DNA of 64,000 nt. Source: Kofleriaceae bacterium. GTDB taxonomy: Bacteria > Myxococcota_A > Polyangia > Haliangiales > Haliangiaceae. Of this stretch, positions 3,946 through 15,346 are shown in pieces. The stretch lies in NCBI GenBank assembly GCA_035539815.1, contig DATLHR010000146.1, positions 8,063 to 72,062 on the forward strand. Reading direction: 5' to 3'. Below the pieces are notes generated by a model that was not told the DNA's origin, did not search any database, and was given only the letters and a program-made list of their open reading frames with translations. Made by a program: the position numbers and the translations under genes. Positions within the stretch are counted from its first letter, which is position 1. Every line of letters starts with the position of its first letter.

Positions 3946-6876
3946 TCAGGAGCGGCGGCGGCGGCGGCGGAGCACGAGGCCGCCGACCAGGGTCGAGAGG
4001 GCGAGGGCGGCGGGCGCGTCGGGGCTCGCGGAGCAGCAGCCACCCAGGGTGGGGAGCTCGACGATCTTGCAGGAGGGCGAGCAGGTCGCGTCGCCCGAGC
4101 CGTGGTCGCACTCCTCGTTGCTGTCGACGATGTGGTCACCGCACGCGGGGCGCAGGCAGTAGGAGCGGCAGTGATCGGGCTCGTCGGCGTTCTCGGCGCC
4201 TTCGTCGCAGCCCTCGGTCGGTGACTTGGTGCCGTCACCGCAGATCGAGTTGACGTTCGCGACGATGCAGACGTCGTCGAGGTGCCAGCCGCCGAGCTCG
4301 AGGCCCATGTCGGTGGTGATGTCCCAGCCGACGGTGTAGACGCTGGAAGGCGAGTAGCCCGAGAGCGCGACGTCGTGGAAGCGCCACTCGCGATCGATGT
4401 GATGGGTCGCGCTCGAGTCGCCGAGGTTCGCCGTGAAGTTGAGCCACGCGCGCTGGTCGTTGACGGTGACGCGCGCCTGGTCGAAGTGGCTGTCTTCGAC
4501 CGCGAGCCAGCGCCGGTACTGGAGGTGCACGTCGGTCCAGCGGCCGACGTCGATCGGCGGGGACTTGATCCAGCTAGTGACGCCCTTGCCGTAGTCACCG
4601 CCGAGCTTCTGCGCGAGCACCTGGGTGCCGGAGTAGGCGAACGGCGGGTCGGTGGCGCCGCCGCTCGGCACGCCCCACTCCCACTCGGATGGGATGTTCT
4701 CGTTGGAGGTGCCGGTGGTCCAGCCCTCGAGGAAGGGGTCGCCGTCCTCGAAGTCGGTGCAGTAGAGCGGGACGGTGTGGCCCTGATAGAGCTGGTAGTA
4801 CGGGTCGGCGAGGTTGTCGGCGAGCGTGAGGAGCGAGCCGTCGACGAACTGCACGCGCGCGCGGTAGAAGATCTTGCCTTCGATCGCGAGCGGCAGCTGG
4901 ACGAAGAAGATGCCGGGCGCGGCGAGGGTCGCCGTGGTGCTGCCGGCGGCGGGCTCGGTGGTGACGGACGGGCGCCAGTCGACGGTGACGCTCTCGATCT
5001 CGTCTCCGTCGCAGCGATCGGTGAGGCCGCTGATCTCGACCCGCACGAGCGTCGACTTCGCCTGCTGCACGAGCGGGCTCGGTGCGACGATGTTGCCGCT
5101 CGCGGTGCGCAGACCGTGGCGGCCGTACGCATTGCGGATCGCGCACTCGTGCGGCGTGCCGTTGTCGAGGTTGCCGTCGTCGTCATCCTCGACGAGCGCC
5201 TCGATCAGGCTGGTCGGGATGTTGGTCGAGCGGCGCAGCGTTCCGACGTAGAGCTTCTGCACGATGCGGATGCCCTCGGCCTCTCCGAGCTGCGCGATCA
5301 GGTCCTTGCGGAGGTCCCACAGGGCGCCGCCGTAGATCATGCCGGTGTGGTGGATCTCGAGGATGTCCTCGGGCCACCGGTACTCCTTGTCGGGCGGATC
5401 GAGCTCGCGCAGCGGCGTGTCGACGTAGAAGAAGCCACGGCCCATGCCCGAGTCGTTGCTCATGCTCGCCGCGAGGAAGTCCGCCGCGCCCTCGCTCATC
5501 GCGCCGTCGAACGAGCCGACGCCTTCGATGATCTCCGCGGTGTGCAGCGCGTGCCCGAACTCGTGGACGATCACGTCCTCGACCAGGCCGGTGTTCTCGC
5601 ACATCTGGCTCGAGCGAAAGAAGTTGATCGACTTCCCGTCGAAGAACGCGTTGCACTCCTGATTGATGTTGACGTTGGCGATCATCTGCGCCGGGAGGAG
5701 CGGCAGCGCGGGATCGAGGTGCTCGAGCACGAACGCCTTCGCGCGGTTCGCGTGGATGAACACGTTGACCTGAGCGTCCTCGGCGGGGTTCGCGGTCGCA
5801 TCCCACACCGCGGTGCCATCGGGCGCGAGCGAGAGTGCGGTGGAGGCGAGCACGCCGCTCGCATCGACCTTGTTCACGATCGTGATGAGGTCGCCGACGA
5901 CCGCGGTCGCGACCGTCTGCGGAACGTTCGAGCCCCAGGTCACGAGGCCGGCCGGCGTGGTGGTCTGGGGCGCTCCTCCGACCAGGACCTGCGCGCGCGC
6001 GGCCGGTCGATCGATGCGCGGCCGCTGCGGATAGCGGTCGACCGCGCGGTAGAGCAGCGTGCCCGAGGCGTAGGCGTTGAGCTGGTGGACCGCGAGGACC
6101 TCGCCGGTCGCGACATCGGCGTAGGCGAGGTAGCGCCCATCGGCGCCGCCGTCGATGTGGAGCGGCCGTGCGATGCGATACCCGAGCACGGCATCGTCGG
6201 CGATCAGCGGCAACACGACTTCGTCACCTGGCTCCGTGACCGGCGCGGCGGGCAAGGCGAGGTCGCGGCGCAGCGCCGTGGTCGCGCGCGTATGGATCGC
6301 CGCGCGTGTCATCCGCGTCCGCGGCTTCGGCACCGAAGCATCCACGTTCGGCAGGGCCTCGCTGCCGATCGCGATCAGCCGATCGCGCTTGAACCGGAAG
6401 CTGACCTGCCCGCCGACGACGCGCCGGCCGCCCACGCGCTGCACGAAGCCGACGGAGCGGATCTCGCCGTCGCTGTGGTTCGACGCGAGCTCGAAGTCGG
6501 AGGCCGTCGCGCCGGGCGCGACGAGGTCGACGTGATCGACCAGCCATTGCCGCGTGAAGGTCTCCGCGATCGCCGCGGACGCGACCGAGCCGAACACGAG
6601 GACGCCGGTGCCCCAGATGCGGCTCGGCACCCCGGTGGCGCGGTCGTACGAGGCGCGCCACGTGCCGCCGGCGGCCGCGGTGAACGCCTTCCATGCCGGG
6701 CTCGCGACGGTCGTGTACCTGACCTCGGCGTGCGCGCGCAGCGGCTTGGTCGTGCCCGCGGCGGGCATCGCCGTCAGGTGTGGCGCCGCGAGCCGCGGAC
6801 CCGTGCGCGGAACGACGGCGTTCGCGGGCACCGACACGAGCATCAAGGTGGCGCCCACGAGCGCCGCGCGAAGCAT
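3946..6876 (-). CDS. secreted thermolysin-clan zinc metalloprotease (M36/M4-like) with Cys-rich repeats and MYXO-CTERM-like tail
   Basis: 976 aa with signal peptide MLRAALVGATLMLVSVPANA. It has HExxH (VIVHEFGHALH) followed by GAMSEGAADF (third-ligand Glu region). The C-terminus carries two CGDG..EGCDEG / CGDH..EECDHG Cys-rich repeats, then GGCCSASPDAPAALALSTLVGGLVLRRRRRRS. Confidence 0.85.
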   Translation of the reverse strand: MLRAALVGATLMLVSVPANAVVPRTGPRLAAPHLTAMPAAGTTKPLRAHAEVRYTTVASPAWKAFTAAAGGTWRASYDRATGVPSRIWGTGVLVFGSVASAAIAETFTRQWLVDHVDLVAPGATASDFELASNHSDGEIRSVGFVQRVGGRRVVGGQVSFRFKRDRLIAIGSEALPNVDASVPKPRTRMTRAAIHTRATTALRRDLALPAAPVTEPGDEVVLPLIADDAVLGYRIARPLHIDGGADGRYLAYADVATGEVLAVHQLNAYASGTLLYRAVDRYPQRPRIDRPAARAQVLVGGAPQTTTPAGLVTWGSNVPQTVATAVVGDLITIVNKVDASGVLASTALSLAPDGTAVWDATANPAEDAQVNVFIHANRAKAFVLEHLDPALPLLPAQMIANVNINQECNAFFDGKSINFFRSSQMCENTGLVEDVIVHEFGHALHTAEIIEGVGSFDGAMSEGAADFLAASMSNDSGMGRGFFYVDTPLRELDPPDKEYRWPEDILEIHHTGMIYGGALWDLRKDLIAQLGEAEGIRIVQKLYVGTLRRSTNIPTSLIEALVEDDDDGNLDNGTPHECAIRNAYGRHGLRTASGNIVAPSPLVQQAKSTLVRVEISGLTDRCDGDEIESVTVDWRPSVTTEPAAGSTTATLAAPGIFFVQLPLAIEGKIFYRARVQFVDGSLLTLADNLADPYYQLYQGHTVPLYCTDFEDGDPFLEGWTTGTSNENIPSEWEWGVPSGGATDPPFAYSGTQVLAQKLGGDYGKGVTSWIKSPPIDVGRWTDVHLQYRRWLAVEDSHFDQARVTVNDQRAWLNFTANLGDSSATHHIDREWRFHDVALSGYSPSSVYTVGWDITTDMGLELGGWHLDDVCIVANVNSICGDGTKSPTEGCDEGAENADEPDHCRSYCLRPACGDHIVDSNEECDHGSGDATCSPSCKIVELPTLGGCCSASPDAPAALALSTLVGGLVLRRRRRRS

Positions 6877-6937: not shown

Positions 6938-6953
6938 GGGCACATGGCTTGCT
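6938..6953 (+). promoter_or_regulatory. candidate sigma-54 (-24/-12) promoter
   Basis: GGGCAC-ATGGC-TTGCT matches the TGGCAC-N5-TTGC spacing exactly. It lies about 15 nt upstream of the ATG at 6968. The resulting leader would be very short, so confidence is low. Confidence 0.3.
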
Positions 6954-6967
6954 CGAGACGGTTGTCG

Positions 6968-7564
6968 ATGGCGGACAACACGAAACCACAGACCGCCGAG
7001 CAGGAGACGAAGCCGTCTGCGGCACCCGGAGCTCCGGTGAGCGACGCCCGCCGACCCCTCGAGCGTGTTCCCGGTGGGCCCGCTGGGCTCGACCGGATTC
7101 GCGACATTCTGTTCGGAGAAATCCTCAACGACCTCGACAAACGCCTCGCGCGGATCGACCACAGCGTCGCGAGTCGGAGCAGCGAGCTGGCGCAGGATGC
7201 GCGCCGGCGCACGGACGTCCTCGAGGCGCACGTCCGCAAGGAGCTGGAGGCGCAGTCGACCAAGACCTCGCACGACGTCGGGGAGGTCTCCTCCGCAGTT
7301 CGCACCTCACGCCAGGAGCACCGCGAAGCGCTGACCCAGATCGAGCAGCGGCTCGCTCGTCTCGACGAGCGCATCGAGGCCTCGATCTCTCGTATCGAGC
7401 GCGACGTGCGCCAGCAGCTGCTCGATCAAGCGAAGTCGTTCCAGGACGAGATCGCGCGGATGCGCAACGAGCTCCGCTGGGAGCTGGTGCGCGAGCTCGG
7501 GATCGAGCTGGAACCATCGCAGGGGGACGAGCGTGGTGCTGGGCCTTGGGCATCGCACCATTAG
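6968..7564 (+). CDS. coiled-coil protein, first gene of the GTPase/two-component cluster
   Basis: ATG at 6968 (MADNTKPQTAEQ...) is in frame with ORF 6944-7564. After a Pro/Ala-rich N-terminus the sequence is heptad-like and rich in E/R/L/Q (RLARLDERIEASISRIERDVRQQLLDQAKSFQDEIARMRNEL). Confidence 0.6.
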   Translation: MADNTKPQTAEQETKPSAAPGAPVSDARRPLERVPGGPAGLDRIRDILFGEILNDLDKRLARIDHSVASRSSELAQDARRRTDVLEAHVRKELEAQSTKTSHDVGEVSSAVRTSRQEHREALTQIEQRLARLDERIEASISRIERDVRQQLLDQAKSFQDEIARMRNELRWELVRELGIELEPSQGDERGAGPWASHH

Positions 7565-9062
7565 GCGGCGGCCGTCGGAGAGTGACGAAGTGGCGGCGCT
7601 CGAGGCGCTCCGCGAGGTGATCGTCGGGCCCGTCCACGTGGCCGCGGTGCTTCCGGATGCCGTCGCCGAAGCTTCGCGCAGGCGTTCGCGCGAGCTCGGT
7701 GCCGCGCTCGAACCGGCGATGACGCGTGCCGTGCGTGACGTCGCGCGCCGCGAGCCCGCGATGTTCGGCGAGATCCTGGCTCCGACGATCGGCACCGCCG
7801 TTCGCCGCGCGGTGGCCGATGCGGTCGCCGCGATGCTCCAGCGCCTCAACGAGGCGCTCGATCACAGCTTCACCTTGCGCGGCCTGTCCTGGCGGCTCGA
7901 GGCTCGACGCAGTGGACGCGCCATGTCCGAGATCGTGCTCGCGCACACGCTCGTGTATCGCGTCGAATGGGTCATGCTGATCGACACCGAGCGCAGCCTC
8001 ATGCTCGAGGAGGTCTCGCTGCCCGAGGTGGGCGCCAAGGCGCCCGATCAAGTTTCGGCGATGCTGAGTGCGATCCAGGCGTTCGTCAGCGAGGCCTTCC
8101 AACCCACGGCACCGGGTGGAGCTCTGCGCACCGTCGAGGTGGGAGACATCACGCTGTGGATCGACCACGATCCGCAGCTCACGGTCGCGGCGGCGGTGCG
8201 TGGCATCGCACCCCGCGAGCTGCGCGAGATGTTGTACGCCACGCGTCAGAGCATCCACACCGAGCATGCGAGCGCGCTCGTGGACCTTCACTCCAGTGAT
8301 CGCACGTCCAGCTTTGCCGCCGCGCGTCCGCTGCTCGAGGATTGCCTGCGGTGCGTGGTGAAGCCGACGCCGCGCCGCGCGCAGCGTCTGCTCGCGATCG
8401 TCGGGATCGTCGGACTTACCGCCGCCGCGGTGCTCTCGCTGCGCGCGTGCGAGACCTCGCGCGCCGACGCCTCACTCCAGCGTACGTACCGCCAGCTGCT
8501 CGAAGACCGGCCCGGGATCGCCGTGCTGTCGATCGCACGCGACGACGGCGGCCACCGGATCTCGGCGCTCGTCGATCCACGCAGCCCGTCGCTCTCGACG
8601 CTGACCGCGCTGACCCACGTCCTGCCGCTGACGCTCGAGACGCGGCCGTTCAGGTCCTCCGATCCGCGGCTCGGGCCGCCGCTCGCCGCGGTCGACGCCG
8701 CGATCCACGAGCTCGAGACCCTGCAGTTCGAGTTCGCGCGTGGCGCGTCGACGGTGGCGCCCACCGAGGTCGCGCGCGCCGCGGAGCTGTTCGAGCGCGT
8801 GCGCGCCGCGAGCGCGCTGCACGGGATGCAGCCGTGCGTCGATGCGATCGGATACTCCGACGAGACCGGCAGTGCGGTGCGCAACGCCGGCCTGCGCGCG
8901 CAGCGTGCTCAGAACGTGGCGGAGGCCCTGGTCGCCGCCGGCGTGCCACGAGGCCTGGTGTCGAGTCGGCCGGCGACGACCTCCGCAGACGGCACGCGGG
9001 CGGTGCGCTTGCGTGCGAGCCTGCGGCCGCTCGCCCACGTGCGAGAGGAGTGTGGCGCGTGA
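7533..9062 (+). CDS. membrane protein: cytoplasmic Roadblock/LC7-like segment, one TM helix, C-terminal OmpA/MotB-type peptidoglycan-binding domain
   Basis: 509-aa ORF. The start is uncertain (GTG 7533/7536 or GTG 7590). TM helix LLAIVGIVGLTAAAVLSL. The OmpA_C-like signature is FEFARGAST...IGYSDETGSAVRNAGLRAQRAQNVAEALVAAGV. Residues ~133-240 show an alpha-beta-beta-alpha-beta-beta pattern (see findings). Confidence 0.65.
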   Translation: MVLGLGHRTIRRRPSESDEVAALEALREVIVGPVHVAAVLPDAVAEASRRRSRELGAALEPAMTRAVRDVARREPAMFGEILAPTIGTAVRRAVADAVAAMLQRLNEALDHSFTLRGLSWRLEARRSGRAMSEIVLAHTLVYRVEWVMLIDTERSLMLEEVSLPEVGAKAPDQVSAMLSAIQAFVSEAFQPTAPGGALRTVEVGDITLWIDHDPQLTVAAAVRGIAPRELREMLYATRQSIHTEHASALVDLHSSDRTSSFAAARPLLEDCLRCVVKPTPRRAQRLLAIVGIVGLTAAAVLSLRACETSRADASLQRTYRQLLEDRPGIAVLSIARDDGGHRISALVDPRSPSLSTLTALTHVLPLTLETRPFRSSDPRLGPPLAAVDAAIHELETLQFEFARGASTVAPTEVARAAELFERVRAASALHGMQPCVDAIGYSDETGSAVRNAGLRAQRAQNVAEALVAAGVPRGLVSSRPATTSADGTRAVRLRASLRPLAHVREECGA

Positions 9063-9568
9063 GGCGAAAGCTCAAGGTCTGCTTGATCGGCGCCACCGGC
9101 GTGGGCAAGACCAGCCTCGTCGGACGGCTCGTGCACAGCGTGTTCTCCGACCGCTACCGGACGACGATCGGCGTGAAGATCGAGACGATGACGCTCACCC
9201 GCGGCGACGATGAGGTGCAGCTGGTGATCTGGGACCTCAGCGGAGAGGACGAGTTCCAGAGCGTGCAGCCCGCGTACCTGGCGGGTGCGGCGGGCTACGT
9301 CGTGGTCATCGACGGGACGCGGCGAGAGACGGCGGATACCGCAGCGGCCCTGCTCGATCGCATGCGGCCGATCGTCGGCCACGTGCCCTACATCGTCGCC
9401 GTGAACAAGTCCGACCTCGTCGCATCGTGGGACCTGGACCACGCCGCGATCGAGAGGTTCGAGGCGGGTGCCGCCAAGGTCGTGAACACCAGCGCACGCA
9501 GCGGAGCCTTCGTCGCCGAGGCGTTCGAGGCCCTGGTCGATGCGATCCTCTCGGAGGCGACGCCGTGA
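9059..9568 (+). CDS. Rab/Ras-like small GTPase
   Basis: GTG at 9059 overlaps the upstream stop (GTGA). Motifs: G1 GATGVGKTS, G2 YRTTIGV, G3 WDLSGEDEF, G4 NKSD, G5 TSARSG. Length is 169 aa. Confidence 0.85.
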   Translation: MRRKLKVCLIGATGVGKTSLVGRLVHSVFSDRYRTTIGVKIETMTLTRGDDEVQLVIWDLSGEDEFQSVQPAYLAGAAGYVVVIDGTRRETADTAAALLDRMRPIVGHVPYIVAVNKSDLVASWDLDHAAIERFEAGAAKVVNTSARSGAFVAEAFEALVDAILSEATP

Positions 9569-10665
9569 GCGACCTCGCGCACGTGTTCACCTCGCTCGGC
9601 GCGCTCGTGTTCGCGCGTGGTGAGGACGGGCAATTCTCGCCCTGCAACGCGCCACCTGCGTGGTGCCACGAGCTCGGCCGCGAGGACCTGCAGCCCGGGC
9701 AGGCGCTCGCGCTCGAGGAGCTGTTCCCCTTCCTGACCTCGTTCCTGCCAGAGGCGCAGCGCGTGTGGAGCGATCCGGCCGCCGGGGTGCTCAGCTCGGA
9801 CTTCTGGGTCGAGACTGGAGCGGCGGGCGAAGAGCTGCACCTCAAGGCGCGAGCGGTCCGCTCGAACGGCCGCGGGGTGCTCGTGATCGTGCGCGACGAG
9901 AGCTCCTATCGCGAGCAGCAGCTGCGCCTGCAGAAGGCGCGCGATCTGCGGATGACGCACGACGCGCTGATGCGCGAGCTGGAGCGCAAGGACATCTTGC
10001 TGCACGCGATCGTCCATGACCTCGCGGCGCCGCTGCACAGCATCGTCGGCTCGCTGTCCTTGTTGCACGAGGCCAAGCTGCCTGCCCCGGAGGCGCGCTG
10101 GATCACGATCGCGATCGACGCCGCCGCGCGGCAGCGCGAGCTCGTCGACAGCATCCTCGACGTCTTCATCGCCGACCACGATGCGCCGACCGACACCTCG
10201 CCGCGCGCGGCGCTCCAGCGCGCCGTCGAGCGTGCGCTGCTCGAGCGCGAGCCGGTGGCGAATCGCTCGCGCGTCGCGCTGCGCGTTCACGGCGTGGCCC
10301 CGGTGGACGTGATCGCGGAGGACACACGCCTCGTGCGCGTGCTCACGAACCTGCTCGATAATGCACTTCGCCACGCCCCGGCGGGCAGTGCGGTGGAGGT
10401 CGAGATCACGCGCGAGGAGACGAGCGTGTGCATCGCCGTCGAGGATCGCGGACCGGGCCTGTCGCCGGAGCACCTGCCGCGGCTGTTCCACCAGCTCTCT
10501 CGCGTGCCGGGCGACCCGACGAGCCACGGGTTGGGGCTGTACTTCTGCCGGATCACCGTCGAACGCTGGGGCGGTGGCATCGGCTACGAGCCGCGCGAGG
10601 GCGGAGGCGCGCGGTTCTGGATCCGCCTGCGCGTCGCGGCGCCCGATCGCCGCGGGGAGGGATGA
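9565..10665 (+). CDS. soluble sensor histidine kinase
   Basis: GTG at 9565 overlaps the GTPase stop. H-box LLHAIVHDLAAPLHSI, N-box VLTNLLDNALRHAP, G-boxes EDRGPGL and GLGLYFCR. No TM segment. The N-terminal ~130 aa look PAS-like. Confidence 0.85.
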   Translation: MSDLAHVFTSLGALVFARGEDGQFSPCNAPPAWCHELGREDLQPGQALALEELFPFLTSFLPEAQRVWSDPAAGVLSSDFWVETGAAGEELHLKARAVRSNGRGVLVIVRDESSYREQQLRLQKARDLRMTHDALMRELERKDILLHAIVHDLAAPLHSIVGSLSLLHEAKLPAPEARWITIAIDAAARQRELVDSILDVFIADHDAPTDTSPRAALQRAVERALLEREPVANRSRVALRVHGVAPVDVIAEDTRLVRVLTNLLDNALRHAPAGSAVEVEITREETSVCIAVEDRGPGLSPEHLPRLFHQLSRVPGDPTSHGLGLYFCRITVERWGGGIGYEPREGGGARFWIRLRVAAPDRRGEG

Positions 10666-11399
10666 TCGTGGCCAAGCTACTTCTTCTCGACGATGAAGCG
10701 GAGGCCCTCGAGTGGATGACCGCGGCGCTCACCAGCCGTGGCCACGAGGTCCGTGCGTACCAGTCGGGCCGCGCGGCGCTGGCCGATCTCGATCAGTGGC
10801 GACCCGACCTGGTGATCTGCGACATCCTGATGCCGGAGATGGATGGTCTGGCCTTCGCGCGGCTCGTGCGCGCACACGGCGGACCGCCGGTGCTGTTCGT
10901 CTCCATCGCCGTCAAGCAGGCCGAGGCGGTGCTCGCCGGCGCGATCGGATTCGTGCAGAAGCCGGCGACCGCGGACGAGGTGCGGGCCGCCGTCGAGGAT
11001 GCCCTGCAGCGCCCCGGGCGCGCGACGGTGCTCGTCGTCGATGACGAGATGGACTCCCTCGAGCTGTACCAGGGCTACCTCGAGTCACGCTTCGACGTGG
11101 AGGTCGCGGTGCATGGTGCGCAGGCGCTCGCGGTCCTGCGGCGCAAGCGGATCGATCTCGTGATCACCGACGTCCACATGCCGGTGATGAACGGCATCGA
11201 GCTGATCCGCGCGATGCGCGCCGACCCCGCGCTGGCGCGCCTCCCCGTCCTCGTGCAGACAGCGGATCGCCACGCGCTCGCGTGCCCCGTGTGGCGCGAG
11301 CTCGGGGTCTCGCATCGCATCGACAAGCTCGACTTCTTGCGCTGGATCGACCACCAGGTGGCGGTCCGCGGTCACGACAACCGGCCGAGCGCCAGCTGA
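10662..11399 (+). CDS. response regulator consisting of two tandem receiver domains, no output domain
   Basis: ATG at 10662 overlaps the kinase stop (ATGA). REC1: LLLLDDE...DLVICDILMPEMDG...FVQKP. REC2: VLVVDDE...DLVITDVHMPVMNG...VLVQTAD. Both keep the acidic pocket and the phospho-acceptor Asp. Confidence 0.85.
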   Translation: MIVAKLLLLDDEAEALEWMTAALTSRGHEVRAYQSGRAALADLDQWRPDLVICDILMPEMDGLAFARLVRAHGGPPVLFVSIAVKQAEAVLAGAIGFVQKPATADEVRAAVEDALQRPGRATVLVVDDEMDSLELYQGYLESRFDVEVAVHGAQALAVLRRKRIDLVITDVHMPVMNGIELIRAMRADPALARLPVLVQTADRHALACPVWRELGVSHRIDKLDFLRWIDHQVAVRGHDNRPSAS

Positions 11400-12358
11400 C
11401 CGCGGGCGCGCACCAGGTTGTGCGCGCGCCGCGACGGAAAGCGCGTCTGGTCCCAGCCGAAGTACTCGTCGCGAAACACGTCGACGCAGAACCGCGCGGC
11501 GAGCTCGAGGCACACCGTCTGACGCCCGAGCGAGATGGCGTCGTACTCGACCTCCGAGATGACGTCGCCCGCACTGCGGCGGAACCCGCGGATCGCCGCG
11601 TCGAAGATCGGGCGGTCGAACACGACGCTGCCCGCGTCCTCGCCGCTCGGGTTGCACCACGAACGCATCGCGTCGCCGAGCTCGTACGCGATCGTGCTGA
11701 GGCCGAGCGTGTCGAGGTCGACGAGGCACACCGCGCGCAACGGCGTGCGCGCGAACAGCACGTTCGAGATCTTGAGGTCGCCGTGGCAGTGACGGCGCGG
11801 CAGCGCGGGCAGCGGCGGCAAGAGCGCGGCCGCGTCGAGGATCTCGCGCGCGAGCTCGACGCCCTCGGCATCGCCGGCGTGCACGCGCGCGTGCTCGGCG
11901 AGGCGGCCGAGGTGCGCCGCCGTGTCGTGGACACCGGCGCGCGCGAACGCGTAGTCGTGCCGGAGCTCCGCCACCGCGCGGTGGAACCGGCCGACGAGCT
12001 CGCCCGCGGCCTCGGCCCAGCTCGCGTCGGGGACGCGATGCACCGTCTCGCCGTCGACCCAGGTCAGCGCGCGCCACGTGCGGCCATCCTCTTCGACCCA
12101 GGCGCGATCGTCGCGCGTGCGGAGGAGGCGCGGCGTGACGAGCCCATGCGCGGCGAGGTGCGCGGTCACCGCGTCGATGTCGAGGTTGACGTGAGGGCCG
12201 AACACCGGGTGCAGCCGCTGCAGCACCGCCACCGGCTCGCCTCCACGAGAGATCCGGTACGTCGCGTTGATCAACCCGCCGGTGAGCGCCGTGACGTCCG
12301 CGTCCTCCCAGCCCCAGGCGGCGAGGACGCCATGCGGTGGAAGCGGTGCGGCGTTCAC
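11372..12358 (-). CDS. APH/choline-kinase-family phosphotransferase
   Basis: GTG at 12358 overlaps the FKBP stop (GTGA). Catalytic motif HCHGDLKISNVLF followed by LVDLDT. 328 aa. The upstream part of the 667-aa ORF overlaps the FKBP gene out of frame and is rejected. Confidence 0.8.
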   Translation of the reverse strand: MNAAPLPPHGVLAAWGWEDADVTALTGGLINATYRISRGGEPVAVLQRLHPVFGPHVNLDIDAVTAHLAAHGLVTPRLLRTRDDRAWVEEDGRTWRALTWVDGETVHRVPDASWAEAAGELVGRFHRAVAELRHDYAFARAGVHDTAAHLGRLAEHARVHAGDAEGVELAREILDAAALLPPLPALPRRHCHGDLKISNVLFARTPLRAVCLVDLDTLGLSTIAYELGDAMRSWCNPSGEDAGSVVFDRPIFDAAIRGFRRSAGDVISEVEYDAISLGRQTVCLELAARFCVDVFRDEYFGWDQTRFPSRRAHNLVRARGQLALGRLS

Positions 12359-14028
12359 TGTGGGTTGATGGCGAGCATCTCGACGTCGAACACCAGCATA
12401 CCCTGCGGGCCGCCGCCGTTCGGATACGCGAGCTCCTGCGGGATCCACAGCCGCGCCGTCTCGCCCACGCCGATGAGCGGGATCCCGTCGACCCAGCCGG
12501 GGATCACGCGCTGGAGCGAGAACGTCGCCGGCATGCCGGTCTTGCGCGACGAATCGAACTCCTGCCCGTCGGTCGTCCAGCCCGTGTAGTGCACGCGCAC
12601 CGTGTCCGTGGGCTTCGCGTGCGGCGCGCCTTTGACCGCCTTGAGGATCTTGTACGCGACCCCCTTGGGGCTCTTCTTCGCGTCCGCAGGTGGCGCCGCT
12701 ACATCCGGCGGCGGAGGCGTCGCCGTCGGTGCGTGCCCGCCGTGCGGGTCGGAGGGGGCCGTGGGGCGCGCCTTGATCTCGATCAGCTCGACGTCGTAGA
12801 CGAGCATGCCCTGCGGCTTGCCGGGCGCGCCGTTGTAGGCGAGCTCGCCGGGGATCCAGAACCGCATCTTGTCGCCGACCGACATCAGCGGGATGCCGTC
12901 GCTCCATCCCTGGATCACGCCGCCGAGCGAGAACTCGGCGGGCTCGCCCTTCACCGCCGACGAGTCGAACATGCGGCCGTCGGTCGTCCACCCCGTGTAG
13001 TGCACGCGCACCGTATCCTGTGGTGTCGGCTTGGTGCCGCCCTTGCCCTTCGCGAGCAGGCGATACGACACGCCCTTGTCGGTCTTGCTCGTGTTCGCGG
13101 GCGGCGCGGCGACGTCGGCCGGCGTCTTCGGCGGCTCCTTGCCCTTCGCGATCGTGATCAGCTCGACCTCGTAGGTCAGCGTGCCCGTCGGCATCCCGGG
13201 CACCGGCTTGCCGCCGGTGGTCATGCGCGACGCGTCGACCCAGAACCGCGTGCGCTCGCCGGGCGTCAGCGACGTCAGCATCTCCTCCATCGCGGCCGAC
13301 TGCCGGTACGGCGGCACGATCGCCGGGCGCTTGCGCAGCTCCGTCGAGTCGAACATGCGCCCCTCGGTGTCCCACGCCGAGTAGTTGAAGGTGACCGTGT
13401 CGTAGAACTTCGGCTTCTCGGTGCCGGTGCCCGGCTTCACGACCAGGTACTTCGTCCCCGACGGCAGCGCCTTCGCGGCCGGCGGCGGCGTCGCGAGATC
13501 CGGGGGCACCGGCGGCGCGGCGACCACGTCGACGATCTCGACCTCGTAGACCAGCGTCTCCGGCGCGGTACCGGAGGGCGCCTGGCCCTTGTAGCCGATC
13601 TCCGGCGGGATCCAGAGCACGACCTTCTCGCCCTTCTTCATCAGCTGCATCGCCTCGGTGAACCCCGGCGCGGCGTTCGCGAGCGGCAGCGGCAGCGGCT
13701 GCTTGTCACCCTTGTTGGTGAAGAACGTCTCGCCCGTCGCCTGGCGCCAGCCCGTGTAGTTGATGAGGACGGTGTCGTTGCGCTTGATGGCCGCCTCGTC
13801 ACCGACGGCGGCGAGCTTCTTGTAGATGAGGCCGCTCGGCGTCTTCACGGCGTCGGCGGGTGGCGACTTGAGGTCGACCGGTGGTGCGACCTGCTCGACG
13901 CCGGTGGGCGGCTTCGCGACCTCCGAGCCGGAGCCCGTCGAGGTGACCGGCGGGACCTTCTGCTTGTCGTCGGAGCGCTGGCAGCCGTACGCGAACAGGA
14001 CGAGGGAGAGAACGACGGCGAGACGCAT
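12355..14028 (-). CDS. lipoprotein with four tandem FKBP-type peptidyl-prolyl isomerase domains
   Basis: ATG at 14028 gives MRLAVVLSLVLFAYGC (lipobox). There are four copies of the FKBP pattern, e.g. DTVRVHYTGWTTDGRMFDSS...FSLGGVIQGWSDGIPLMSVGDKMRFWIPGELAY...LVYDVELIEI. Confidence 0.85.
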   Translation of the reverse strand: MRLAVVLSLVLFAYGCQRSDDKQKVPPVTSTGSGSEVAKPPTGVEQVAPPVDLKSPPADAVKTPSGLIYKKLAAVGDEAAIKRNDTVLINYTGWRQATGETFFTNKGDKQPLPLPLANAAPGFTEAMQLMKKGEKVVLWIPPEIGYKGQAPSGTAPETLVYEVEIVDVVAAPPVPPDLATPPPAAKALPSGTKYLVVKPGTGTEKPKFYDTVTFNYSAWDTEGRMFDSTELRKRPAIVPPYRQSAAMEEMLTSLTPGERTRFWVDASRMTTGGKPVPGMPTGTLTYEVELITIAKGKEPPKTPADVAAPPANTSKTDKGVSYRLLAKGKGGTKPTPQDTVRVHYTGWTTDGRMFDSSAVKGEPAEFSLGGVIQGWSDGIPLMSVGDKMRFWIPGELAYNGAPGKPQGMLVYDVELIEIKARPTAPSDPHGGHAPTATPPPPDVAAPPADAKKSPKGVAYKILKAVKGAPHAKPTDTVRVHYTGWTTDGQEFDSSRKTGMPATFSLQRVIPGWVDGIPLIGVGETARLWIPQELAYPNGGGPQGMLVFDVEMLAINPQ

Positions 14029-14044
14029 TGCGCCGGAAGATACG

Positions 14045-15346
14045 TCAGCGCGCGGCGGCCGCAAACGCCTCGCGTGTCAGGTTGCGCGTACCGTTCGCCT
14101 CCACGACGATGTTGTCCTCGATCCGGATCCCACCGAACGCGCGCAGGTTTGCGATCGCCGACCAATCGATCAGATCCCTGCGGCCGTCCTGCTGCAAGGG
14201 CTTCAACAAGCCGTCGATCACGTAGATTCCCGGCTCGATCGTGAAGACCTGCCCGGGTTCGATCACCGACGTGTTGCGCAGGAACTTGTTCTCCGGGCGG
14301 GGGGGCCGCAGCTTCAGGCCCGCGTCGTGCACCGTGATGCCCAGTGAGTGGCCGAGCCCGTGCGGGAACAGCGCGCGCGTGACGCCGCGGTCGACGAGCT
14401 CCTCGACGCTGCCGCGGCCGATGCCGAGCTCGCGCAGTGCGGCGGCGAGCAGCCGGTGCGCCGCATCGTGGAGCTCCTCGTAGGGCAGGCCCGGGCGGAT
14501 CTGGCGGATCACCTCGAGCTGGAGCCGCTCCATGTGGTCGAGCAGGTCCCGGAACCGGCGCGCCGCGCTGCCCTCACCTCGGACGTGCGTGCGCGTGATG
14601 TCGCTGCCGTAGCCGAGGACCTTGGCGCCGGCGTCGAGCAGAAACGACGTGTCGCCGGCGACGCGCTCGCGCTGATACGCGACGTAGTGCAGCACCGCCG
14701 CATGCGCACCGAGCGCGACGATGTTCTGGTAGGGAGCGCGCGCCTCGTCTTGCTCCGAGCCCTCGAGGAACGCGAGGTGGAGCTCGAGCTCCGACGGCGT
14801 CCCCGTCGCGAACCGCTGCCGTGCCCGCTCGTGCCCGGCGACGGCGCGCGCGGTCGCCGCCGCGAGGCACTCGATCTCGTACGCGGTCTTCCTCGTGCGC
14901 GCCTGATCGAGCGCCGCGATCAGCTCGGCGGGATTCACGGCGCCCGCCGGTGCCGTGCCCTGATCGCGCGTGATCACCGCGACCCGCCCGCCGGGTAGCG
15001 CATCGCCCGCGAGCCCGGGCTTGACCTCGACGACCTCGAAGCCGGTCCAGAAGTGATCGCTCTCCGGCGGCGCGGCCATCTCCCAGAAGTCGTCGGTCAC
15101 CGTGCGTACCAGGCGCGGCTTGTGGCTCGGCCGCACGACGACGAACGCGTCCGCCTCGACGAGCGGACACCAGTGCGAGTACGCGGGCGTCGGCGACAAC
15201 GGCCACGCCTGATCGTCGAACCGGTTCTTCATCGTCGCCGCGCCGCTGCACAGCACGATGGCATCGAAGCCGTGCGCGGCCATCGCCGCCTCGTAGGCTT
15301 GCTGTAGATACGCGAGGTGCTGGGGATAGGTCGCGGCGTAGCTCAC
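14045..15346 (-). CDS. pepQ: Xaa-Pro dipeptidase (M24B)
   Basis: 433 aa. M24 metal-ligand context: FLLDAGAKVLGYGSDITRT, HGLGHSLGITVHD, TIEPGIY, GGIRIEDN. The N-terminus MSYAATYPQHLAYLQQAYE is PepQ-like. Confidence 0.8.
   Translation of the reverse strand: MSYAATYPQHLAYLQQAYEAAMAAHGFDAIVLCSGAATMKNRFDDQAWPLSPTPAYSHWCPLVEADAFVVVRPSHKPRLVRTVTDDFWEMAAPPESDHFWTGFEVVEVKPGLAGDALPGGRVAVITRDQGTAPAGAVNPAELIAALDQARTRKTAYEIECLAAATARAVAGHERARQRFATGTPSELELHLAFLEGSEQDEARAPYQNIVALGAHAAVLHYVAYQRERVAGDTSFLLDAGAKVLGYGSDITRTHVRGEGSAARRFRDLLDHMERLQLEVIRQIRPGLPYEELHDAAHRLLAAALRELGIGRGSVEELVDRGVTRALFPHGLGHSLGITVHDAGLKLRPPRPENKFLRNTSVIEPGQVFTIEPGIYVIDGLLKPLQQDGRRDLIDWSAIANLRAFGGIRIEDNIVVEANGTRNLTREAFAAAAR

Follow-up and report, generated by a model that had tools for sequence, protein, structure and literature searches.

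A cluster of five genes lies on a 64,000-nucleotide stretch of a Kofleriaceae bacterium genome (contig DATLHR010000146.1, assembly GCA_035539815.1), hereafter called the window. The open reading frame (ORF) listing of the window gives five plus-strand frames, named here g1 to g5 and spanning positions 6944/6968-11399, that are predicted to encode a coiled-coil protein, a membrane protein with an OmpA-like domain, a Rab-like GTPase, a histidine kinase and a tandem receiver protein (Table 1). The locus is an additional case of Group 1 Rup (Rup1), a known and widespread system that has been defined computationally and, as far as literature searches show, is experimentally unexplored.

An earlier description made from the DNA letters alone (the sequence-only reading) had reported five same-strand genes joined by a 7533/7564 overlap and by GTGA, GTGA and ATGA junctions, and reading of the sequence confirmed these coordinates. 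Each start is preceded by a purine-rich Shine-Dalgarno (SD)-like run (AGGGGGA, GAGAGGAG, GGAGG and GGGGAGGG). The called frames have a GC content at third codon positions (GC3) of 0.82-0.91, as expected of real genes in a surrounding genome and window of about 70% GC. The start of g1 is ambiguous between the ATG codons at 6944 and 6968, the latter being used by the independent gene call of an identical JGI contig, and the start of g2 is backed by the alignment of its homologues and by the independent gene call.

Table 1. Positions in the window of the five genes, their junctions and the predicted domains of g2 and g4. TM, transmembrane; AF2, AlphaFold2; L082, L083 and L084 are relatives that bear the five-gene form.
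Feature	Position	Strand	Description
g1	6944-7564	+	206 aa; 198 aa if ATG 6968
g2	7533-9062	+	509 aa
g3	9059-9568	+	169 aa
g4	9565-10665	+	366 aa
g5	10662-11399	+	245 aa
g1/g2 junction	g1 stop 7564, g2 GTG 7533	+	32-nt overlap, sequence read
g2/g3 junction	9059-9062	+	GTGA start/stop overlap; counterpart in L082, L083, L084
g3/g4 junction	9565-9568	+	GTGA start/stop overlap, sequence read
g4/g5 junction	10662-10665	+	ATGA start/stop overlap; other possible GTG start at 10668
g2 Roadblock/longin-type domain (predicted), residues 131-252	7923-8288	+	Topology from AF2 model and DSSP; invariant YRVE motif (R143, V144, E145)
g2 TM helix, residues 286-304 (LLAIVGIVGLTAAAVLSLR)	8388-8444	+	Kyte-Doolittle maximum 2.16; K/R-rich side N-terminal
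g2 OmpA-like domain, residues 398-499	8724-9029	+	Core motif GYSDETGSAVRNAGLRAQRA (D443, R458)
g4 N-domain, residues 1-145	9565-9999	+	Predicted PAS fold and exit helix with Gln Q123 (LQKAR); presumed GTPase-facing input
g4 kinase core	9991-10665	+	HisKA 143-200 (H-box His151), HATPase_c 253-357

Features and predicted folds of the five proteins

The g1 product, described beforehand as a coiled-coil protein of about 200 residues, indeed has 198 or 206 residues depending on the start and is a helical, coiled-coil-type cytoplasmic protein devoid of any transmembrane (TM) segment. No dedicated Pfam family was found for g1, only weak matches of coiled-coil/apolipoprotein type, and the family alignment reveals an invariant IRDILFG motif in which R45, F49 and G50 are invariant. 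A short N-terminal motif is common to g1 (7067-7150, IRDILFG...) and g2 (7590-7640, LRxLLVGPE...), with an hhalign E value of 0.0023, which hints, at the sequence level, at a common helical partner segment. Compared with most relatives, the g2 of the window has a deletion right after this motif. It should also be noted that the g1 of the window (7500-7564) and that of Paraliomyxa (L002) are devoid of ELRxxKTDRxALAxLFxE at the C-terminus, a motif that is for the greater part kept in at least 70-90% of the remaining g1 family, and that the g1 C-terminus overlaps the g2 start here.

g2 encodes a single-pass membrane protein of the type named DUFX:OmpA (PMC4316618), with a predicted cytoplasmic N-terminus and a predicted periplasmic C-terminus. 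In agreement with the sequence-only reading, which had proposed a 509-residue single-pass protein, one hydrophobic segment (residues 286-304) was detected, the sole such segment in all five proteins, and it is covered by a long helix (residues 282-324) in an AlphaFold2 (AF2) model built on 35 sequences, with a mean predicted local distance difference test (pLDDT) value of 83. The OmpA/MotB-type C-terminus that had also been proposed was recovered as a fold, whereas its Pfam match (PF00691, 6.9e-5) remained under the cut-off, with 23.6 bits for 27.2 required, and covered profile positions 34-74 only. PF00691 is carried by 17 of the 35 g2 homologues. The g2 model matches the C-domains of Pal, OmpA, OprF and YfiB (Foldseek E values of 1e-5 to 1e-3, TM-scores of 0.55-0.72), and in the homologue alignment conservation reaches at least 90% at G440, D443, G446, R458 and A459. 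In OmpA/Pal domains, an Asp/Arg pair contacts the peptide stem of peptidoglycan. As judged from the model, the g2 C-domain keeps the OmpA-like fold together with this pair and is a putative peptidoglycan-binding domain.

The g2 subfamily to which the window belongs (Kofleriaceae-type) does not have an insert of about 55 periplasmic residues that is present in other relatives (alignment columns ~520-575, g2 residues ~375-385) and that resembles a duplicate of the small α/β module preceding the OmpA-like domain. Some relatives (P0117-P0121) reach 900-1,500 residues with 6-11 separately matched stretches, which suggests repeated periplasmic modules or fusions.

The cytoplasmic region of g2 had been called Roadblock-like, a claim that is retained at the level of the fold and not at that of the sequence. 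In the AF2 model, residues 131-244 are arranged as α-β-β-α-β-β-β-α with pLDDT values mostly between 84 and 97, the values dipping to 68-74 over residues 171-200, that is, helix 171-188 and the next loop. When the whole-g2 model was submitted to Foldseek, it matched the longin-domain Rab7 guanine-nucleotide exchange factor (GEF) Mon1-Ccz1 (5ldd, chains B/E) with an E value of 1.4e-4 and a TM-score of 0.54 over 149 columns whose g2 residues are not specified, and this longin subunit was the sole non-OmpA-like family among the 50 g2 matches listed (E≤0.001). On the sequence side, the Pfam scan of g2 gave no Robl_LC7 match, and only 2 of the 26 g2-family domain sequences scanned against Robl_LC7 reached an E value of about 0.02. 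Likewise, nothing was found with the g2 domain in a profile search of PDB sequences or by hhalign against human DYNLRB1. Because no sequence method detects Roadblock/LC7, we use the label of Roadblock/longin-type fold and not that of family member. The model suggests that DUFX contains a domain of this type.

The assignment of the 169-residue g3 product as a Rab/Ras-like GTPase was borne out by Pfam matches to Ras (9e-27) and Roc (3e-24) and by the closest solved structures by sequence, which are eukaryotic Rabs (Rab31, 1.4e-20). This single-domain protein displays eukaryote-like G motifs (G1 GATGVGKTS, G2 T36, G3 WDLSGE, G4 NKSD and G5 TSAR), and GxxxxGKTS, T36, DxxG, NKxD and SA[KR] are conserved across the 79 members of the family alignment. 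Its G3 motif is devoid of the catalytic Gln, with E63 at the position of Ras Q61. In the family, this position is occupied by E (54/79), A (8/79) or R (7/79), and Q is outside the five commonest residues. The position of Ras G12 is an F in 58 of the 79 sequences and a Thr in the g3 of the window. No C-terminal lipidation/prenylation motif was detected in g3.

The g4 product had been described as a soluble histidine kinase with a PAS-like N-terminus. The kinase part stood, with HisKA (5e-7) and HATPase_c (6e-25) both above the Pfam cut-off and H151 within the HDLAAPL sequence, as did the solubility of the protein, in which no TM segment, HAMP domain or sensor TM was found. Regarding the N-domain, the PAS fold comes from the model and not from Pfam: no Pfam match (no PAS at E≤0.1) and no PDB sequence match by profile search were obtained. 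The AF2 model (pLDDT 94) shows a β-β-α-α-α-β-β-β arrangement followed by a long exit helix, and all 50 top Foldseek matches are PAS/LOV domains, including those of LOV-histidine kinases (E values of 1.4e-3 to 2e-2, TM-scores of about 0.5), so that a PAS fold is predicted for this output N-domain. Q123, located about 12 residues into the exit helix, which continues into the kinase dimerisation helix, is invariant in 72 N-domain sequences and 96% conserved in 45 locus-derived sequences. Searching for homologues with one g4 N-domain sequence found nothing; the matches of an alignment-based search are mostly short proteins or fragments, and this search therefore says little on output architectures. 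There are also proteins (P0041, P0043, P0049 and P0050) whose 147 residues roughly equal the PAS-fold N-domain in length, one cluster of them being found on 20 contigs.

Finally, g5 was expected to be a regulator made of two intact receivers only, and this is what was found: tandem receivers (REC1 and REC2) matched by Pfam Response_reg in two stretches (8.6e-40), without output domain. The residues D10/D11/D54/S81/K100 of REC1 and D127/D128/D170 of REC2 include both acceptor Asp residues, D54 and D170. As read from their sequences, g4 and g5 hold the full set of classical two-component residues (H-box His, HATPase_c, acidic pocket and acceptor Asp).

Conservation of the locus and relation to Group 1 Rup

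To establish how the locus is conserved, relatives of g2 were collected by scanning a single genome of each species with a pattern (at least 523 genomes with a relative), and the best 80 loci, which come from Myxococcota, Acidobacteriota, Gemmatimonadota, Cyanobacteria, Verrucomicrobiota, Desulfobacterota, Calditrichia and others, were studied. The sequence-only reading had proposed a check of gene-neighbourhood conservation and had named the lack of co-conservation in related genomes as an outcome that would speak against it; the order was kept in 77 of the 80 loci. A g3 homologue lies directly downstream of g2, on the same strand, in these 77 loci. Of the three exceptions, two reach a contig end shortly past the g2 match, and in the third (L078) the GTPase is located elsewhere in the locus. 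A g1 homologue, detected with a family hidden Markov model, likewise lies directly upstream of g2 in 77/80 loci, the remaining three being cut by contig ends. In a profile search, the g2 family gave 2,889 matches at E≤1e-30 among 1.84 billion cluster representatives (50% identity).

The five-gene form with its overlapping junctions was found in five relatives (L001, L082, L083, L084 and a JGI contig), where a Response_reg gene of about 242-251 aa follows the kinase gene, and the identical JGI contig L081 also bears the full five-gene form. The flanks of the five-gene relatives differ among themselves and from those of the window. Since gene order is kept across phyla and the overlaps recur in relatives, the arrangement is far beyond chance, and these genomic comparisons indicate a signalling unit whose five genes are conserved together and apparently translated together.

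That the genes are merely juxtaposed or mis-annotated, with no functional unit behind them, is scarcely credible. The one point in favour of this explanation is that a scan for a σ70-like promoter or a clear terminator found neither, and such a scan is uninformative in sequence of so high a GC content. Against it stand the synteny across phyla, the five-gene form conserved amid unrelated flanks, the 4-nt overlaps behind SD-like sequences and the high GC3 of every called frame. Juxtaposition is effectively refuted by the synteny, as far as sequence comparison goes.

Using comparative genomics, Wuichet and Sogaard-Andersen (Genome Biol Evol 2014/2015, PMC4316618) delimited the Rup family and its Group 1. 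Group 1 rup genes are accompanied by three conserved genes that encode a cytoplasmic coiled-coil protein, a protein composed of an unknown domain, a TM helix and OmpA, and an output module. The latter is a diguanylate cyclase/phosphodiesterase or a histidine kinase with an N-terminal region carrying an invariant Gln, and the Group 1 GTPases are devoid of the G3 Gln (PMC4316618). Among the 27 loci/genomes that Table S2 of this study gives with the order DUFY > DUFX:OmpA > Rup are a deltaproteobacterial one, Sorangium cellulosum sce5816, and those of Nostoc punctiforme (Npun_F1891) and Anabaena (Ava_0879) (PMC4316618). In published phylogenies, Rup1 is a recognised eubacterial group that clusters with the Rab/Ras/Rho/Ran GTPases of eukaryotes.

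The g1 > g2 > g3 order of the window is identical to that of these Table S2 rows. g1 corresponds to the adjoining cytoplasmic coiled-coil DUFY, g2 to DUFX:OmpA with its conserved cytoplasmic region, TM helix and OmpA-like fold, g3 to a single-domain Ras-superfamily GTPase with eukaryote-like G1-G5 motifs and a G3 without Gln, and g4 to the output protein with its invariant N-terminal Gln (Q123). In tblastn searches, g3 matched the GTPases of Nostoc/Calothrix-type loci having the Table S2 architecture with 115-165 bits. Each Rup1 feature tested was found in the locus, the OmpA-like domain as a predicted fold. It differs from the published form by the additional, translationally coupled REC-REC gene, which recurs in the closest relatives, by the absence from g2 of the ~55-residue periplasmic insert and by the absence from g1 of the family C-terminal KTDR..LF motif. 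The sequence-only reading had taken the locus for an uncharacterised new module. Novelty did not hold, the same four-gene core being Group 1 Rup (PMC4316618), while the uncharacterised state did, in that literature searches found no experimental study of any Rup1 member. In the published work, DUFX and the output N-domain were given no fold, and the Rup GTPases were stated to be uncoupled to MglB homologues (PMC4316618). What is new here is the Roadblock/longin-type fold suggested for DUFX, the predicted PAS fold of the N-domain and the survey of exchanged outputs described below; these are modest additions that should ease tests of a system that is very common in soil Acidobacteriota, Gemmatimonadota, Myxococcota and filamentous cyanobacteria.

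The fourth gene was surveyed in 75 loci. It encodes a kinase in 47 of them and, elsewhere, a hybrid kinase with REC/Hpt, a σ54 activator, an adenylate/guanylate cyclase, an HD-GYP protein, a PP2C phosphatase or a PAS protein. The g4-type N-domain was detected on about 47 of the 75 proteins, namely on kinases, GAF-kinases and HD-GYP proteins, and was undetected on the σ54, cyclase and PP2C proteins. Most cyanobacterial loci have a gap of about 450 nt between the GTPase and kinase genes, which in Nostoc linckia (L069:8112-8513) holds an extra ORF of about 133 aa. The proposal that this ORF is a stand-alone g4 N-domain is unsupported, the weak match (E value of 0.02) lying in the Gln-containing C-terminal helix.

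The genes on both sides of the locus in the window are unrelated to g1-g5. Upstream, on the minus strand (3946-6876), lies a gene for a 976-aa predicted secreted protein with an HExxH motif, for which Pfam gave no match at 1e-5 and a 'choice-of-anchor J' match is weak; its C-terminal repeats are rich in Cys, and its Cys/hydrophobic/poly-Arg tail resembles the sorting signals of myxobacterial C-termini. This gene is divergent from g1, the two starts being just 67-91 nt apart. Downstream, a convergent gene on the minus strand encodes an APH-family phosphotransferase (Pfam APH, 4e-23) and is followed by FKBP and PepQ genes, the FKBP gene (12355-14064, minus strand) encoding a 569-aa protein with at least three tandem FKBP-type peptidyl-prolyl isomerase domains. 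The stops of g5 (11399, plus strand) and of the APH gene (11372, minus strand) overlap by 28 nt (11372-11399), and therefore there is no intergenic room for a terminator.

A proposed signalling path and its alternatives

Taken together, these results make it probable, in our view, that the locus is a Rup1 member in its kinase-output form, completed by a cognate REC-REC response regulator, and that it works along the following lines. g2 would be fixed to the cell wall via its periplasmic OmpA-like domain and would pass the state of the envelope through its one TM helix. On the cytoplasmic side, its Roadblock/longin-type domain, probably with g1, would then set the nucleotide state of g3, either by promoting exchange or by contributing to a GTPase-activating protein (GAP). 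GTP-bound g3 would bind the PAS-fold N-domain of g4 and alter its autophosphorylation at His151, and g4 would phosphorylate g5 on D54 and/or D170, g5 acting in turn by protein-protein contacts. GTP hydrolysis by g3 would finally be helped in trans, Gln123 of g4 being the published candidate for this help. The working model thus runs from a wall anchor to a Roadblock/longin-type platform, then to a Gln-less Rab-like switch and to a PAS-fold input carried by swappable outputs, and it makes experiments concrete. The envelope-linked signalling module announced by the sequence-only reading holds as a co-conserved unit of GTPase, predicted wall anchor and phosphorelay, and not as a new kind of system.

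The direction of signalling, from the GTPase to the product of the fourth gene, is proposed because g1, g2 and g3 are constant while the fourth gene swaps outputs behind a shared input domain, which is the strongest indirect argument for this direction. The presence of the N-domain on interchangeable outputs is the pattern expected of an input domain. The opposite flow, in which the kinase would be upstream and the GTPase would be the regulated output, with REC-REC as a side branch or a phosphate sink, appears quite unlikely. Such a flow has been proposed for the Streptomyces CvnA-D complex of the conservon, whose analogy with Rup1 is published and whose interactions hinge on both the kinase's and the GTPase's catalytic activities. 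However, g4 is soluble, without sensor TM or HAMP, and has a cognate receiver gene. Moreover, a kinase acting as the input is hard to reconcile with the replacement of the fourth gene by non-kinase outputs (σ54 activator, cyclase, HD-GYP, PP2C), and the conservon markers (the Robl_LC7 protein CvnB, the DUF742 protein CvnC and an MglA-type GTPase) are not among the five proteins.

A second question concerns the role of Gln123. Because g3 is devoid of the G3 Gln, its hydrolysis would need help in trans. Eukaryotic GAPs can supply a missing Gln in trans, and the Gln of the output N-domain has been proposed to do so in Rup1 (PMC4316618). Completion of the g3 active site by the N-domain Gln, as thus published, is possible. 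A stronger form of it would make the g4 N-domain mainly a GAP, so that the fourth protein would end the GTPase signal and the true effector would be elsewhere, which we consider unlikely. The Gln-less g3, the invariance of Gln123 across 72 N-domains and the eukaryotic precedent (PMC4316618) speak for such a pure GAP, whereas the position of Gln123 in the exit helix is typical of a structural signalling-helix motif, and there is no obvious rationale for fusing a GAP to many different outputs. It should be noted that the two roles are not exclusive, some effectors doubling as GAPs.

A third explanation gives localisation precedence over sensing: g2, held by peptidoglycan, would recruit the GTPase and the kinase to envelope sites such as poles or septa and would thereby act as a spatial landmark or polarity module. 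The OmpA-like anchor with its single TM helix would suit this role, bacterial MglA-type GTPases that control polarity offer a precedent, and the REC-REC architecture of g5, which we take to resemble that of FrzZ in the Myxococcus polarity pathway, is also counted in its favour. Nevertheless, the system occurs in very diverse lineages, including non-motile and filamentous ones, and is coupled to transcriptional and second-messenger outputs, and no motility or division genes were found in the flanks of the window or of its relatives. We rate this explanation as very unlikely.

Three points weigh against the signalling path that we favour. First, the Roadblock/longin call depends on one predicted model and on one Foldseek match family with an E value of about 1e-4, to which sequence profiles bring no support. 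Second, in the model, Q123 belongs to the helix that leaves the PAS core and could equally be a structural signalling-helix residue and not a catalytic finger. Third, 28 of the 75 fourth proteins have no N-domain detectable by sequence, and the GTPase-effector interface is, to that extent, not uniform. The proposal that DUFX is a membrane-tethered Roadblock/longin platform, which would serve a Rab/Ras-like GTPase as its GEF or provide one half of a composite GAP, is put forward tentatively, as possible and on balance doubtful.

Comparison with other small GTPase systems and wall anchors

The sequence-only reading had taken the MglA/MglB switch as the paradigm of bacterial small GTPases. It is not the sole one, the actinobacterial conservon being the published analogue of Rup1. 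The conservon comprises the CvnA kinase, the CvnB Roadblock/LC7 protein, the CvnC DUF742 protein and the CvnD GTPase, and has been proposed to form a membrane-associated G-protein-like complex whose interactions depend on kinase as well as GTPase catalytic activity. As in the locus studied here, the gene of a small GTPase is accompanied by those of a histidine kinase and of an uncharacterised partner, and by a Roadblock-type element (a predicted fold in the case of g2). However, the conservon GTPase belongs to MglA group 2 (GTPGQ G3) whereas g3 has a Ras-like DxxG, the conservon Roadblock is a separate, sequence-detectable Robl_LC7 protein, and the conservon kinase sits in the membrane and carries HAMP and an LPxR motif at its C-terminus whereas g4 is soluble. 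In addition, the conservon has neither an OmpA anchor nor a response regulator. No Robl_LC7 or DUF742 match was obtained in g1-g5 or in the three flanking genes that gave Pfam matches, the 976-aa upstream protein having no Pfam match at 1e-5.

MglA/MglB of Myxococcus and Thermus associates, like the present locus, a Ras-superfamily GTPase with a Roadblock-fold regulator (predicted in the case of g2) and links to response regulators. By contrast, the G3 motif of MglA is TVPGQ and its G2 Thr is flanked by an intrinsic Arg finger, and MglB is a soluble stand-alone Robl_LC7 protein with no membrane or peptidoglycan anchor. Membership of g3 in the MglA family was rejected, since its G3 is WDLSGE versus TVPGQ/GTPGQ and since T35 adjoins T36, leaving no Arg finger of the kind that marks MglA group 1; R34 of g3 is not conserved in the family, where H, L or Q is found instead. 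Both an MglA/MglB pair and a conservon were likewise rejected because neither the five proteins nor the flanking genes with Pfam matches include a Robl_LC7 or DUF742 protein.

With the OmpA/Pal/MotB anchors, g2 shares the C-terminal fold, the GYSD..G...N..L...RA core and the conserved Asp and Arg, and it differs from them by its 285-aa cytoplasmic signalling region. A stator of MotB/ExbD/TolR or Zorya-like type was rejected, there being no Asp in the g2 TM helix and no adjoining Pfam match to MotA/ExbB/TolQ; the ZorA-type matches are weak and link g1 to the coiled-coil tail of ZorA. An anti-phage defence system was also rejected, as the PADLOC set gave just weak generic matches to coiled-coil, P-loop and receiver proteins.

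Finally, eukaryotic Rabs and their longin GEFs (Mon1-Ccz1/Ypt7, 5ldd) resemble the locus in that Rabs are the closest solved relatives of g3 and that a longin GEF subunit is the best PDB fold for g2 after the OmpA-like ones. The two differ in that no sequence homology is detectable between g2 and longin domains, that g3 has neither a prenylation motif nor the Gln that Rabs keep, and that the putative g2 platform is membrane-tethered in cis and predicted to be wall-anchored. If DUFX were such a platform, MglA and Rup, both prokaryotic small-GTPase families, would share one regulator fold, and the Rab-longin GEF partnership known from trafficking in eukaryotes would have a wall-anchored bacterial counterpart and could predate eukaryotes.

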